Part shown: piece after piece, positions 4,262 to 16,860 of the stretch | How positions within the stretch are numbered: position 1 is the first letter of the stretch | Layout of the letters: every line of letters begins with the position of its first letter | Source of the DNA: Escherichia coli | GTDB lineage: Bacteria; Pseudomonadota; Gammaproteobacteria; Enterobacterales; Enterobacteriaceae | DNA: 64,000 nucleotides | Assembly (NCBI RefSeq): GCF_030013595.1 | Contig: NZ_CP122768.1 | Strand: one strand, 5' to 3' | Position numbers and translations under genes: made by a program | Notes under the pieces: model-generated | Databases searched by the model: none | What the model was told of the DNA's origin: nothing | What the model saw: the letters and a program-made list of their open reading frames with translations, nothing else

Positions 4262-4737
4262 ATATTCGCCGTAAAAACCGCTTGTGGATTGCCTGTGCTG
4301 TGTTGGCAGGTTTGGCGCTGACCATCGGTCTGGTGCTGTATGCGCTGCGCTCGAATATCGATCTCTTTTATACGCCGGGGGAAATTCTCTACGGCAAGCG
4401 TGAAACTCAGCAGATGCCGGAAGTCGGTCAGCGTCTGCGCGTTGGCGGGATGGTGATGCCGGGTAGCGTGCAGCGCGATCCCAATTCGCTGAAAGTGACC
4501 TTCACCATTTACGATGCTGAAGGCTCAGTGGATGTTTCTTACGAAGGCATTTTGCCGGATCTGTTCCGTGAAGGGCAGGGCGTTGTGGTGCAGGGCGAGC
4601 TGGAAAAAGGCAATCATATCCTCGCGAAAGAAGTGCTGGCGAAACATGATGAAAACTACACGCCGCCAGAAGTTGAGAAAGCGATGGAAGCTAACCACCG
4701 TCGCCCGGCGAGTGTTTATAAGGACCCAGCATCATGA
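4258..4737 (+). CDS. ccmE: Cytochrome c-type biogenesis haem chaperone CcmE
   Basis: 159 aa, N-terminal TM anchor, OB-fold haem chaperone; operon position. Confidence 0.9.
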
Positions 4738-12044: not shown

Positions 12045-12085
12045 ATCGTATAGCTTAACGTGTAGCTAAAAATGTTTGCTGCAAA
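12045..12085. repeat. Island-terminal repeat CGTATAGCTTAACGTGTAGCTAAAAA, matching the int-proximal end
   Basis: Near-identical to GTATAGCTAAACGTGTAGCTAAAAAA at about 22035-22060; candidate integrase arm-type sites. Confidence 0.5.
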
Positions 12086-12622
12086 AGTATACAATTTTAA
12101 CCGTTATGACTCCCTGTTATCCGTTATCAAGCTGGTGGATGATCATGGATAACCCGTTATGGGAATCCCCATATCGGCATCAGGCCCATGCCATAACAAA
12201 AACCCCATATTCGTGGGTTTTCTGTGTTGTGGCTATTCTGCCGTTGCCGTGCTGGTGGATATTTCCGGTATGTGGCTCACCATATCGGCATCACGCCCAC
12301 CAGCGCGACGCATTTTTTTAATTTCGCGGGTGTAAAAATTTGACGGGGCGGGCGGTCCTATAAGCAATGGGGGGTAGGGATTTCGATCCCCCCTCCTGAA
12401 TGCAATTTTCCGTATGTGGCTGTGCGGCAATCATACTCGTCACATGTTTTTGACAATAAAAGGCCCGACCGTGAGACTCACAAACAAAAAAGTTACGGAG
12501 AAACAGGGGATCGGGCTCGGTTGCCGCTAAATCTATTCAATTAAAAGAAGATGTCAATAGGGAAAACGAAAAAAAACAATGCTGATATTGTCATAATTTG
12601 AACAAAACCACTATATGTAGTT

Positions 12623-12853
12623 TTAGTTCATGAGGTTAGTCGCTACCAGATGCGTCAATAGTTTTTTGCTATTAATAATCCCTCTTTTTCCATCGGGAGC
12701 TTTGCACTTGTCACTACCTGGTAACTCCTGGTGGCGTTCCTGTTGCAGCACAACGGAAACAGGCGCTGAACACCTGTTAATTTTGCTTGCAGGTTGTTTG
12801 ATTTCGGCAATGCTGCGGATCATCTCCAGCATATCGGCTTCGGTGATGGTCAT
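12623..12853 (-). CDS. Hypothetical small protein (76 aa) at the distal end of the island
   Basis: ORF with AAGGTG ribosome-binding site 6 nt upstream of the ATG; no recognisable motif. Confidence 0.3.
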   Translation of the reverse strand: MTITEADMLEMIRSIAEIKQPASKINRCSAPVSVVLQQERHQELPGSDKCKAPDGKRGIINSKKLLTHLVATNLMN

Positions 12854-12883
12854 GATTTACACCTTAGGAAATCTTAGGGGCTG

Positions 12884-13137
12884 GTTGACACTTTCCGGCT
12901 TAAGACCTTAACAAATCTTAACATCGCAGGTTGACACACTTGACACTTTTTCGCGAAAAACCTTATCAAACCTTAGCATTTCTAAGCATGGCAACTTGAC
13001 ACTTTTCGCGATTTTTTCGGCTTTTTGACGTGGTAAATCTGGCGCAAAGCCAGTAACGGCGGGGTTTACAGCGAGGTTGACACTTTTTCGCGTTCAGAGT
13101 GTAAAGTGTCAACCTGGCAAGCTGCTCAACTTGACAC
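12884..13137. repeat. Array of at least 7 copies of GGTTGACAC(TTTTTCGCG) in both orientations, interspersed with CTTA(A/G)CA short repeats
   Basis: Copies at about 12884, 12929, 12940, 12996, 13075, 13105 (inverted) and 13131; lies immediately downstream of the TerS-like gene. Confidence 0.6.
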
Positions 13138-13146
13138 TTTTTGAGG

Positions 13147-13674
13147 TCATTGATGGCCTGATTTTTCCCACTCAGCCAGGGCGTTTAGTCCGGCTTCACT
13201 CCAGTTATCCAGCTCATCGGGACAATCACCTGCAACATAGCAGAGCTCACAACGCAGCATACGAATTGCCAGCCTGGCATTTTCCCGAAAATCATACTGC
13301 TCAAAGTAATATTGCCCAGCATAATCCTCAAGGCAGATAGCACCATCATCAAGAAATTGCACTTCACAGCATAGTTCCCCGGCTGCATCCTGTACACGCT
13401 GCTGTATGTCATTGTCCGTTACTGGTGCAGGGATTTTACCGTCTCTGGCCTTAACTGCTTTCCAGAACTCGCCCCACGTCATTTCCAGCGTTCTCTCTGG
13501 CCACATTTCAGAAACGGTATCTTTTCCCTGTGCTGGTGGGCTGTTCCGCTGCTCTGTCGCTTCCACATCGATTTTTTTACCGGACATGACCACTTCGCCT
13601 TTCTCGATCCAGTCGTAAACTGTCTGGCGGCTTACGCCTTTGTGTTTGGCATATTCTGCCTTGCTCATAAACAT
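13147..13674 (-). CDS. Small terminase-like winged-HTH protein (Rpp-like packaging-redirection candidate)
   Basis: 175 aa; N-terminal MSKAEYAKHKGVSRQTVYDWIEKG resembles the Nu1/TerS-type HTH; acidic cysteine-containing C-terminus; GAGGGGA ribosome-binding site. Confidence 0.5.
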   Translation of the reverse strand: MFMSKAEYAKHKGVSRQTVYDWIEKGEVVMSGKKIDVEATEQRNSPPAQGKDTVSEMWPERTLEMTWGEFWKAVKARDGKIPAPVTDNDIQQRVQDAAGELCCEVQFLDDGAICLEDYAGQYYFEQYDFRENARLAIRMLRCELCYVAGDCPDELDNWSEAGLNALAEWEKSGHQ

Positions 13675-13844
13675 GACACTTCCCCTCAGACTGTATTAAT
13701 GCGCCGGAAAGCGCGTGTATTTAAATCATCCCAGGAACCGTTGAGCACCAATTAGTTGCGCGAAGTAATCGGCACCAGCGTTCCGAACAATTTCCAACTT
13801 AACGTTCTGATCATTGTTTCCTGCTGCAGGGACAATCCCACGAT

Positions 13845-14498
13845 TCATAGCCAGCGCCCGGATATTTCTTCCAGTTTTTCCAGAGCTGGCTTGCAGGCCG
13901 CATCAATAACTTCACGGACCATTCCGGCGAGCTGTTCTTCTTCTGTCGGCGTTGTTACTTCCACACCTGATGGTTTCCCGCCCTTATCCCATACGCCCAA
14001 CGGTACGAGCGCAACGTGATCGATAAGAAATGGCGTACCCTCAATGAAAAAATTGTCCTCGCCCATTACATCAGGAACTTCTGCCCCACCGGACGCACCA
14101 CAAAACACAACCGACGGGCTGGTGGATACCTCCCCCCGTGCTTTCTGGATGTAATCGATGATTTCCTGCCCGTAAATCCGGCATACGCCCCACACCTCGT
14201 CACCGCGAATATACGGCAACATGACGGTGCCAATAATGCGCGACCGTTCGCCCACGTCTTCAAGGGTTTTGCTTTCGGGATGGTCGATAATGACGGGTAC
14301 TCCGGCGCAACGTTCCAGGAACTGCGGATTGAGATAAGTTTGCGGTGAACGCCAGACAAATTCTTTTTCTTCGGCGCGATAGGCCATTCCGGTTCCTGTG
14401 ATACGCAGGTTAATCAGCCACATGTTGGAAAACTGATAAGGCGACGGTAGCTGACCGTCCCGAATCTGCTTTGCCGCCTCAATTTCTGTTAAAAGCAT
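13845..14498 (-). CDS. Hypothetical protein (217 aa), island cargo of unknown function
   Basis: ORF in the same transcriptional orientation as the packaging module; no motif I can assign. Confidence 0.5.
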   Translation of the reverse strand: MLLTEIEAAKQIRDGQLPSPYQFSNMWLINLRITGTGMAYRAEEKEFVWRSPQTYLNPQFLERCAGVPVIIDHPESKTLEDVGERSRIIGTVMLPYIRGDEVWGVCRIYGQEIIDYIQKARGEVSTSPSVVFCGASGGAEVPDVMGEDNFFIEGTPFLIDHVALVPLGVWDKGGKPSGVEVTTPTEEEQLAGMVREVIDAACKPALEKLEEISGRWL

Positions 14499-14562
14499 AA
14501 TGTCCCCCGGTTATAAGCAATAAGCCCCACCAAATCCGGCAGGGCTGAAATCAGCACGTTTT

Positions 14563-15156
14563 TCATGCCCCCGCGAGGCTTGCAACGTTAATTTTAACCA
14601 GGCGACGGGGAGGGATTTTGAAAGCACTAAGCCAGTTATTCGGATCCCCCTGATATTCAGTAATCCGCCGTCCGGCTTCATCCATTCTTACGGTTTTACG
14701 CAAATAGCCCGGCGTATTTTCCACAGCCCACTGAACACTGTCTTTTGCAGCCTGGTAAATCTGATCTTCCAGCACCGCCAGCGTTGCAGAATCTGAAACG
14801 GAACGAATATCCACATCACTGAATTTTTTAGCCAGCTTCTGTGCACCAATTAATGCACGCTTGCGGTAATCCATCGACTTTTCACCAGCAAACGGGGCTG
14901 GAGCGCGACGGCCCATATTGCTGTATGCGGAATCCGCTTTAGCCTGGGCTTCTGCCAGTGAGGATTCATCTTCGACTGACGCGACGATGTTTTTATTCGC
15001 GTCATCCTCGTCCGCTTTTGTGAAATCCTGTGCGGGGATCGCATTCAGAATTTCGATAATCTCCTGCGGAGTGCTGCCCTGCGACTCTGACAGAGCGTTA
15101 ACCACCTCCATCAGTTTTAATCGCAAATCTTCTTTGCTTGCTGGCATTTTTACCAC
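14563..15156 (-). CDS. Hypothetical protein (197 aa), acidic and Ala/Lys-rich, predicted largely helical
   Basis: ORF adjacent to the 217-aa ORF; composition resembles scaffold or decoration-like proteins, but this is unverified. Confidence 0.5.
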   Translation of the reverse strand: MVKMPASKEDLRLKLMEVVNALSESQGSTPQEIIEILNAIPAQDFTKADEDDANKNIVASVEDESSLAEAQAKADSAYSNMGRRAPAPFAGEKSMDYRKRALIGAQKLAKKFSDVDIRSVSDSATLAVLEDQIYQAAKDSVQWAVENTPGYLRKTVRMDEAGRRITEYQGDPNNWLSAFKIPPRRLVKINVASLAGA

Positions 15157-15186
15157 CTCTCTTTTTTCACCAAAAAATCACGACCA

Positions 15187-15366
15187 TCAGGCCGGACGTT
15201 CTACGGGATAAAGCGCCCGCTGCATTAAACGCCGGGCGACCTCATGAATGCTCGGAGCAATCCCCAGCGGAGAATTGCGGCGTTCCTCGTCCTGGATGCG
15301 CTGTAATGCTTCAATCTGATCACGAGCGAGTAAAACGGGTTTCACGCTGGCTTTTCTCATAGTCAT
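15187..15366 (-). CDS. Hypothetical small basic protein (59 aa), possible DNA-binding regulator
   Basis: AGGAG ribosome-binding site upstream of ATGACTATG; first gene after tandem terminators, so it probably heads its own transcription unit. Confidence 0.4.
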   Translation of the reverse strand: MTMRKASVKPVLLARDQIEALQRIQDEERRNSPLGIAPSIHEVARRLMQRALYPVERPA

Positions 15367-15489
15367 ATCTCCTGAACAAAACAATGATTATGATTGCACA
15401 AACTGAAATAACGATCTACATCATTGCAATTTATGAAACAATAACGCATGATGATCGCGTTCTTCCCATTGACTTCAATCACCTGAAAA

Positions 15490-15560
15490 ACAAAGCCCGC
15501 AACACTTCTGGCTGCGGGTTTTTTACTGGCACAAAAAAGCCGGGAAAAATCCCGGCCTCC
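15490..15560 (-). terminator. Tandem rho-independent terminators downstream of the PerC-like gene
   Basis: Two hairpins (GCCGGGA...TCCCGGC and CCCGCA...TGCGGG), each followed by a T-run on the minus strand. Confidence 0.55.
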
Positions 15561-15561
15561 G

Positions 15562-15849
15562 TCACTGACTGCAATTTTTCGATCCAGGGTATTTCCTGAA
15601 TGCCTTACCATTGGGCTGATGTAATCCCATCCCGGCATGTGCCCGGCTGATGGTTTCGCGCATTTCCCCGAAATTATCCTGCCTTGCTGGTGGGCGTGCT
15701 GCCTTGCGGATACATTCCGCGCGACGTTTTGCCGCCTGTTCCCGTGCCTTGTCATCATTCGCCAGCATGATGACCTCAGCCCACCGCGCCGCCGCTCTCC
15801 GGTACAGACCACGCGCTTCCAGTGCTTCCGCTTTGCTGTCGTGAATCAT
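15562..15849 (-). CDS. PerC-family transcriptional regulator-like protein
   Basis: 95 aa; N-terminus MIHDSKAEALEARGLYRRAAARW matches my memory of the PerC/Pch family; GGAGAA ribosome-binding site; 4-nt overlap with the upstream gene. Confidence 0.55.
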   Translation of the reverse strand: MIHDSKAEALEARGLYRRAAARWAEVIMLANDDKAREQAAKRRAECIRKAARPPARQDNFGEMRETISRAHAGMGLHQPNGKAFRKYPGSKNCSQ

Positions 15850-16388
15850 GCGCCTGTTTTCTCCTTTGCTGCCCGGCGCTGACGTTTGCGCTTCTCATTC
15901 AGCGCCACCAGCCGCGTTTCTGCGTCCTGTTGTTCCTGTGGTGTCACCTCGCCGCACGGCTGGCCTTTCAGGTCGTAGCGTACCCCACCAGCCATTAAGG
16001 CGCGGTAATAGCGCGGACACTGCGCATAAGATGCCAGCGTCGCACGCAATGCCCCTGGACCGAATGCCAGCCCCCTGACGGCGAGATCCTGCATCAGGTC
16101 GTCGAATATCCCCACCTTAAGCGGCTTCGGTGCTTCCCGGCTGAATAATTCAGGCCACAACTCAGTGAGGCGGTTAACGCGCCTGCGGTTTTTGCGCTGG
16201 CGTTTGGTCATATGCCGCCACGGTGTCGCCCCTGTGGGCTTCTGCTGCGCTTTCTGGTTACCGGGCATCACTTTATGCGCCGATGTGGTTTTATCCTGCT
16301 CCTGCGCCGCCTGCGTCGTTTTCTGCGGCGTGCCGTAAATGCCTTTCGGTTTTCTGTTAATGGTCAGCTTAGTCATGCTTTGCCCCAT
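15846..16388 (-). CDS. FinO/ProQ-family RNA-binding protein-like
   Basis: 180 aa; basic N-terminal region followed by LKVGIFDDL...YAQCPRYYRAL, resembling the FinO/ProQ fold. Confidence 0.5.
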   Translation of the reverse strand: MGQSMTKLTINRKPKGIYGTPQKTTQAAQEQDKTTSAHKVMPGNQKAQQKPTGATPWRHMTKRQRKNRRRVNRLTELWPELFSREAPKPLKVGIFDDLMQDLAVRGLAFGPGALRATLASYAQCPRYYRALMAGGVRYDLKGQPCGEVTPQEQQDAETRLVALNEKRKRQRRAAKEKTGA

Positions 16389-16439
16389 CGTTTTTACTGG
16401 TTGCTACGTTGCCCAACGGCACTGACACAACATTCTGTT

Positions 16440-16860
16440 TTCATTTTTAACATTCCTGATTTTTTAATTCCTCACCTGCTGCACAGTGAAAATTTATGAA
16501 GTTAATAACAATATGATTTTAAATGTATTTTTAAGTACTCACTTTTTAATCCTTATATATACGCAAAAGTGAGGTAAATAGTTAAGTTTTAGTTAATATC
16601 TTGCATGGTGTGTTTTTTAACCTACCTGTTATTTTTATTACCTCATTTCTATTAACTCACCATTCCTCACTTTTGTTCCTCACTTTTTATTATTCTTGTT
16701 CTGCTCCTCAGTCGTTTTCTTTATTGTTGTAATCTGTTGTTTTGCAATGTGTTTTTAACTCCTCACTTTTTGACCTATATACAGGTGAGAAAGTGAGGAG
16801 TGGCGTTGATTTTTTGTTAAATTACCCGCCATCCTCACTTTTGCTCCTCACTTTTTACAG
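16440..16860. repeat. Putative satellite replication origin: AT-rich region with CCTCACTTTT iterons
   Basis: At least 8 copies of CCTCACTTTT (direct and inverted) plus degenerate copies, immediately downstream of the RepA-like gene. Confidence 0.7.

Follow-up and report, generated by a model that had tools for sequence, protein, structure and literature searches.

In the replicon described here, a single residue of the RepA protein, position 447, covaries with a single base, the seventh, of the iterons that follow its gene: Asn accompanies A, and His accompanies G. We propose, tentatively and at just short of an even chance, that these two pairings define two origin-specificity classes of a replicon found in ~10% of complete E. 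coli genomes, in classical as well as capsid-forming PICIs, and that the island in our window (the whole 64-kb stretch of E. coli DNA that was analysed) is a natural mismatched chimera, either replication-dead through recombination with an island bearing a remnant repA, or an intermediate of relaxed specificity. That such an island should have an origin is as expected in a PICI, and this basic finding is ordinary; the interest lies mainly in the one-residue/one-base rule and in the window island as apparently its only natural exception. The features discussed below are summarized in Table 1.

Table 1. Features of the RepA-type replicon and its host island, in window coordinates
Feature	Position	Strand	Remarks
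Host island, PICI of ~10 kb	12047..22053	-	between yejO and tRNA-Pro/yejM, E. coli chromosome
att repeats CGTATAGCTnAACGTGTAGCTAAAAA, 26 nt	12047-12072 and 22029-22053		
repA, predicted helicase-initiator, 471 aa	16855..18270	-	N-terminal domain, RecA-like AAA_25 ATPase (residues 152-320), C-terminal winged helix
Winged-helix coding part of repA	16858..17043	-	residues 410-471
Codon 447 of repA	16930..16932	-	CAC, His, read directly
Apparent recombination junction in repA	16940..16959		codons ~438-444
Exact copies of CCTCACTTTT (n = 6)	16665(+), 16678(+), 16761(+), 16833(+), 16846(+), 16565(-)		
One-mismatch copies of CCTCACTTTT (n = 2)	16537(+), 16789(-)		ACTCACTTTT at 16537; CCTCACTTTC at 16789
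Weaker repeat variants	16470, 16641, 16655, 16705, 16783		
Conserved core of the likely origin	16661..16857		always travels with repA; 322 E. coli genomes match the repA-proximal part only
Stop-proximal tandem iteron pair	16833..16855 (16833-16842 and 16846-16855)	+	13-bp period; offsets +3/+16 in all relatives
Inverted iteron pair	16761..16798 (16761-16770 +; 16789-16798 -)		conserved centre CCTATATACAGG; inverted repeat 86% complementary
A+T-rich spacer between iteron sets	16688..16760		27-37% G+C (30-bp windows); AT skew -0.26 to -0.44
Distal tandem iteron pair of the core	16665..16687 (16665-16674 and 16678-16687)	+	offsets +171/+184 conserved
Diverged tandem duplicate of the core	16431..16596		one inverted iteron pair kept (16537-16546 +; 16565-16574 -) around TATATATA; tandem pair decayed

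The host element has the properties of a Gram-negative phage-inducible chromosomal island (PICI), a kind of phage satellite. Its genes all lie on the minus strand and encode, in order, a tyrosine integrase, an AlpA/excisionase-like HTH protein of 68 aa, an icd-like product, a DUF4222 protein, RepA (followed by the origin), a ProQ/FinO-like protein, PerC, and capsid/packaging-related proteins (DUF2213 and TerS-like). An integrase, an alpA-type regulator, a rep gene, a single gene direction, a length of ~10 kb and a PICI attachment site are thus all present, and tail and lysis genes are absent. This layout matches the one published for Gram-negative PICIs (PMC6092414), in which yejM is a listed PICI attachment site (PMC6092414, Table S1). 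Although the att repeats, CGTATAGCT[T/A]AACGTGTAGCTAAAAA, are similar to the core published for PICIs at the yejM site, TTTGTAGTTATACGTTTGTAGTTATACGG, they are clearly distinct from it, and that published core is absent from the 64-kb window.

Several other features of the island were recorded along the way. Directly downstream of the origin lie the genes for the ProQ/FinO-domain protein, which has an RNA-chaperone fold (15846-16388, minus strand), and the PerC-family regulator (15562-15849, minus strand). An Rfam search of the intergenic region for an RNA partner found none; over 15800-17200, Rfam returned only sub-threshold miRNA-hairpin matches, which are explained by the inverted repeat at 16758-16801, and no RNA family fits. 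Two minus-strand ORFs (14563-15156 and 13845-14498) match parts 405-544 and 115-315, respectively, of the 545-aa PHROG 6216, in permuted order, and the latter also matches DUF2213 and a head-maturation protease family. The icd-like ORF (19122-19982, minus strand) encodes 286 aa in the window, compared to annotated lengths of 190 aa in ETEC6335 and 67 aa in cq9, and the Icd-like motif occupies its last 44 residues. Because the annotated length differs in those two strains, the long N-terminal extension may not be real.

The repeats occupy a non-coding gap of 466 bp (16389-16854) that separates the stop of repA (16855-16857, minus strand) from the beginning of the ProQ/FinO-like gene (16388, minus strand). 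G+C content in the gap is 25-34%, compared to 50-60% in the genes on either side, which agrees with the AT-rich non-coding region beside an initiator gene that the earlier note had described. Its count of at least eight direct and inverted copies likewise held, with 6 exact and 2 one-mismatch copies of CCTCACTTTT; weaker variants are listed in Table 1. Of the 12 matches to CCTCACTTTT (at most one mismatch) in the whole 64-kb window, where 3.75 are expected, 8 fall within 320 bp of this gap. Dinucleotide-preserving shuffles of the region itself (1000) contained a mean of 0.115 copies and a maximum of 2, compared to the 8 observed. The copies are ordered, not scattered: 16665/16678 and 16833/16846 are tandem pairs that repeat every 13 bp, and 16761/16789 and 16537/16565 are inverted pairs, each centred on TATATA. 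The copy at 16846-16855 shares one base with the repA stop codon. A scan of the region for DnaA boxes (at most one mismatch), IHF sites and GATC revealed nothing meaningful, the one DnaA-box match being poor, and over 16200-17000 a promoter/terminator scan detected no sigma-70-like promoter; its single terminator-like match was weak and lay within the ProQ-like gene.

We collected relatives by scanning IMG/VR with RepA (80 loci, 65-97% protein identity), by scanning IMG/VR a second time from the most divergent RepA, that of L076, which returned mostly the same loci and 13 new ones, and by adding several E. coli loci by hand. A pattern scan of species-representative genomes with TAAAAAGTGNGNNNNAAAAGTGNG gave 16 matches in unrelated taxa, adding no genera and no new iteron classes; since none was accompanied by a RepA homologue, we attribute these matches to chance. 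Among the ~95 full-length relatives (RepA 65-97% identical), six iteron sites lie at +3, +16, -59, +88, +171 and +184 from the repA stop, corresponding in the window to 16846, 16833, 16789(-), 16761, 16678 and 16665. Only three full-length cases depart from this layout: L010 and L056 have lost sites, and L012 has additional tandem copies. In the iteron cores and the central CCTGTATA, columns are at least 95% conserved, and the spacers are variable. The conserved offsets of the inverted pair, -59/+88, enclose an extra half-site, CTCACCTG. As in the window, the first iteron overlaps the repA stop in the ~95 relatives, placing the origin immediately 3' of rep, and two iteron sets (16761-16855 and 16665-16687) surround an AT-rich region. 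This spacer (16688-16760) is strand-biased, being T-rich on the plus strand, and would serve as the unwinding region.

The conserved unit is smaller than the region that had been proposed as the origin (16440-16860). The repA-proximal ~200 bp (16661-16857) stand as a conserved origin, and are the sole part to match the window in 322 E. coli genomes, regardless of which gene follows; the core remains with repA whether the next gene is ProQ/FinO, SSB or small ORFs. The distal half is instead a diverged duplicate of that core: 16431-16596 aligned locally to 16661-16820 with a score of 97, compared to 39 +/- 6 for shuffles, and this duplicate is present in only ~20 E. coli genomes. Iteron copy number also varies among relatives. 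L012 (from the repA stop at 4414 onward) and L116 (from 2105 onward) contain expanded tandem tracts with a 13-bp period, of six and five copies, respectively, compared to two in other loci. L010, from 4414, keeps the first two iterons and then continues into unrelated DNA, which is the look of a truly decayed origin.

The RepA protein itself matched a single Pfam family, AAA_25 (E 2e-44), and its residues 153-326 aligned with RSF1010 RepA (PDB 1g8y; E 0.005), the sole solved structure found by sequence. RefSeq names the product 'helicase RepA family protein', and PHROG 2850 matches it over its full length. The N-terminal domain (residues 3-135; window 17866-18262, minus strand) is without a Pfam match and matches phrog_864 'DNA primase' (E 4e-17), which may make it the vestige of a primase-type domain. 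Residues 111-137 form a variable linker. Because the AlphaFold2 model of full-length RepA was poor (pLDDT 58, shallow alignment), we used the model for the C-terminal domain only, in which it predicts a winged-helix fold composed of H1 (410-424), H2 (431-440), a recognition helix (~445-457) and a beta-hairpin wing (461-470). By analogy, RepA would be a helicase with its own origin-binding domain, of the self-loading type. We rejected the reading of RepA as a plasmid-style Rep_3 initiator: the protein has no Rep_3 match, and the region has no DnaA boxes.

We next consider how such a replicon might work. Induction of the island by a helper phage would lead to synthesis of RepA, a RecA-like (AAA_25) helicase that would be hexameric and equipped with its own C-terminal winged helix. 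The winged helices would bind the 9-bp iterons AAAGTGRGG, six of which stand at fixed positions in the 200 bp after the repA stop, in the order tandem pair, inverted pair around CCTGTATATA, 70-bp A+T-rich spacer, second tandem pair. The helicase would then open the A+T-rich DNA and load itself without DnaA. Binding, melting, self-loading and DnaA-independence are each proposed here by analogy to SaPI Reps (PMC9371898).

Evidence that RepA reads the repeats comes from their variation. The iterons fall into two classes, AAAGTGAGG (A class, that of the window) and AAAGTGGGG/C/T (G class, as in HNSQ2209); the class is uniform within an island, being shared by all six sites and by the weaker extra copies of a locus. 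Class is associated with residue 447, located in the recognition helix: Asn occurs with A in 23 of 24 unique sequences, and His with G in 31 of 31. The relative mutual information of residue 447 with class is 0.88, compared to at most 0.33 for any other RepA column. Cores beside a His447 RepA contain a mean of 9.2 GTGGG and 0.6 GTGAG, while those beside an Asn447 RepA contain 7.4 GTGAG and 0.4 GTGGG. The swap is seen on at least four different C-terminal backgrounds, and on a tree for which codon 447 and the iterons had been masked, and which recombination makes approximate, residue and iteron switch together four independent times, the window being the only discordant tip. The winged helices of L100 and L102 differ at residue 447 only, and their iteron classes are opposite. 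The 13 loci added by the second IMG/VR scan all obey the rule (13/13).

Since the distance between codon 447 and the first iteron is only 75 nt, linkage contributes to this association. As the whole explanation, simple linkage was rejected: residues 457-469 lie nearer to the origin than 447, yet their relative mutual information is at most 0.33, and iterons up to 390 bp from codon 447, including the distal pair, still follow the class. L101 and L102, two relatives of the G class, have a distal inverted pair that is of the G class too, and its AT-rich flanks are nearly identical to those of the window. The covariation of residue and class argues for RepA as the repeat-binding protein and for the region as its origin. 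Asn-adenine and His-guanine pairing fit the usual amino-acid-base preferences. Residue 447, at the start of the recognition helix, would contact iteron base 7 and set how it is read, Asn selecting A and His selecting G. Discrimination may not be strict, because one G-class site is tolerated in each of three Asn447 loci. Covariation was also observed at a second level, at RepA residues 443-453 (L049-L052, L067, L069-L071, L110-L120), where 'DTKHLKRWLA' occurs with AAAGTGGGC and 'EMKHFRRWLY' with AAAGTGGGG, which suggests that there are further specificity subclasses.

The window departs from this pattern. Its origin core is intact and of the A class, and stands beside His447, against the family rule of Asn447/A and His447/G; it is the only discordant full-length RepA among the ~95 relatives from IMG/VR and E. 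coli genomes. The RepA and the origin of the window thus appear to come from different specificity classes. A pattern search of IMG/VR for His447 together with an A-class first iteron found only a cq9-type island, compared to 12 matches for the control (Asn447 with an A-class first iteron). In cq9, only 136 aa of repA are left as a remnant, which follows a D5-like primase gene with a GGTAGAYA origin of its own. Among complete E. coli genomes, none matches the window over a stretch that includes both codon 447 and the first iterons. The closest is cq9, and Asn447 is present in the near matches that were read (L002, L083, L084).

Comparison to two strains suggests how the mismatch arose. Over 13860-16959 the window is identical to strain cq9, and the 277 nt that follow contain 66 differences. 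Over 16940-18400 it is identical to strain ETEC6335, whose repA allele carries Asn447 and equals the window allele with H447N. From ETEC6335 it differs at 9 sites in 15337-16939, all 9 common to cq9; were these nine spread evenly, the chance of finding none in the 1460-nt identical part would be ~0.03. To judge from these alignments, the window repA is probably a chimera with its junction at codons 438-444. One block, found elsewhere behind a dead repA, would then have brought in both His447 and the A-class origin. The arrangement in which that block is found was examined in E. coli cq9 (L001 9476-10200, identical to IMG/VR L085) and PapRG-04-4 (L101 2076-2800). In both, a D5-like 'DNA primase family' Rep with its own GGTAGAYA origin comes first, immediately followed by a C-terminal remnant of RepA (136 aa) and then by the RepA-type origin; the remnant pairs His447 with the G class in PapRG-04-4 and with the A class in cq9. 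This looks like the replacement of one replicon module by another, leaving an orphan origin behind.

Because its His447 disagrees with an A-class core, the ability of the window island to fire its own origin is in doubt, and we put the chance that it is impaired at about one half. The earlier note had taken the repeats as a sign that the island is probably replication-competent; this does not follow, given that the window holds the only His447/A-class discordance among ~95 full-length relatives. Full competence of the same origin, with His447 binding A-class iterons well enough, or with relaxed specificity, and normal replication after induction, is nevertheless quite possible, at somewhat under an even chance. 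The island has an intact repA ORF and six core iterons that are all called exact, and it retains the integrase, the alpA-like gene and both att repeats. Moreover, His447 with the A-class block occurs in two islands, those of the window and cq9, at two different attachment sites, from which it follows that the block has persisted and moved, and the Asn447 islands with one G-class site suggest some cross-tolerance. Against competence stand the singularity of the window among full-length relatives and the nature of the other His447/A-class case, a cq9-type remnant that is not under selection. The search of complete E. coli genomes, in which cq9 came closest and the near matches that were read carry Asn447, and the chimeric appearance of the window repA right beside codon 447 argue in the same direction.

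Two further readings would give the repeats another function altogether. They might act mainly as operators through which RepA or another regulator controls the ProQ/FinO-perC operon, or through which RepA regulates itself, and autoregulation via inverted iterons is common in iteron plasmids. The region does lie upstream of the ProQ/FinO-like gene, and both inverted pairs bracket TATATA-type sequences that are possible -10 elements. However, the core is anchored to the repA stop rather than to the downstream gene and persists when that gene differs, 16200-17000 contains no sigma-70-like promoter, and iteron sets around an AT-rich spacer are the layout of origins shown to work in other PICIs. 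We therefore consider a mainly regulatory function unlikely, although a secondary regulatory role of the distal pair is possible. A packaging site (cos or pac), or another site recognized by a helper-phage protein, is less probable still, to the point of being very hard to credit: every PICI needs a packaging signal, and a region of AT-rich repeats is able to provide it, but here the repeat class covaries with a RepA residue rather than with any packaging gene, and the same core is found in classical and capsid-forming PICIs, whose packaging modules differ. We consider it likely that the region is the RepA-dependent replication origin of a Gram-negative PICI. Of the proposal that it is an iteron-type origin of a satellite, the PICI layout, the position 3' of rep, the fixed offsets in ~95 relatives and the covariation of class with residue 447 uphold the essentials, with the amendment that it is not an origin of the plasmid-style Rep_3/DnaA-box kind.

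Taken together, covariation of Asn/His at position 447 with A/G in the iteron predicts, in a simple and falsifiable way, how the specificity of an origin is encoded. Such a code may explain how several PICIs coexist in one cell without cross-firing. The window island may fail to replicate because its helicase residue is wrong for its repeats; if the mismatched chimera is instead an intermediate of relaxed specificity, it may show how initiator-origin pairs change specificity. For annotation, an intact-looking iteron array together with an intact rep ORF is insufficient to call a satellite replication-competent.

Among known replicons, iteron-plasmid origins of the Rep_3/pi/RepE type were considered and rejected: these have WH1-WH2 initiators, 17-22-bp iterons and DnaA boxes, whereas the iterons of the window are 9-10 bp with a 13-bp period, and Rep_3 is missing. 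A full-text literature search for the iteron sequences returned unrelated primer matches only. RSF1010/IncQ RepA (1g8y) shares the ATPase core, as noted above, and Pfam AAA_25. In IncQ, however, RepC binds 20-bp iterons and RepB' primes, while the helicase of the window has its own winged helix; neither a RepC-like iteron-binding initiator nor a RepB primase was found in the island, so that the helicase core alone is related to IncQ.

The origin-binding domain of the alpha protein of satellite phage P4 is a C-terminal winged helix. Like the window island, P4 is a satellite of enterobacterial phages, and its alpha primase-helicase binds short direct and inverted repeats (PMC6092414). It differs in that alpha is SF3-type, a second site, crr, is needed, a plasmid state exists and the repeats are others; PICIs and P4 have been described as independent lineages (PMC6092414).

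SaPI Rep/ori (PMC9371898) resembles the replicon of the window in combining helicase and initiator in one protein with a C-terminal winged helix, and in having short iterons immediately after its own ORF. In SaPIs, 6-12 iterons are split by a central AT-rich region, and neither DnaA nor a loader is needed (PMC9371898). The SaPI Rep is an SF3/AAA+ helicase that moves 3'-5', whereas the ATPase of the window is RecA-like and related to RSF1010 RepA. SaPI iterons are 5-6 bp and face opposite directions on the two sides, while those of the window are 9 bp and the tandem sets face the same direction, the only opposed sites being one inverted pair on the rep-proximal side.

The closest counterpart is the pri-rep/ori of EcCICFT073 (Fillol-Salom et al. 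2018, PMC6092414). According to that study, Gram-negative PICIs have their origin directly 3' of rep, as an AT-rich stretch with a set of iterons on either side, and for EcCICFT073 cloned rep and ori kept a temperature-sensitive plasmid alive at the restrictive temperature, both being needed (PMC6092414). The window island shares with it int, alpA, rep, ori, perC, a length of ~10 kb and one gene direction, as well as the position and layout of the origin and an upstream DUF4222 gene. The initiators differ: the EcCICFT073 Rep is a D5_N/DUF5906/Pox_D5 (SF3-type) primase-helicase, whereas the RepA of the window matches AAA_25 only. The iterons differ as well, being GGTAGAYA in EcCICFT073 and AAAGTGRGG (AAAGTGAGG) in the window. 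The supplement of PMC6092414 does not contain the iteron sequences, which appear only in its Figure 2a; we found GGTAGAYA iterons directly after a D5-like Rep gene in L099 (19010-19238) and in cq9 (L001 9890-10186). The PICIs tested so far, EcCICFT073 and EcCIEDL933, use a D5-like Rep, and the EcCIEDL933 rep is reported to be identical to that of EcCICFT073. PICI replicons tested to date thus have SF3-type initiators, while the widespread E. coli replicon described here has a RecA-like RepA helicase fused to a winged helix and a very regular origin of six sites.
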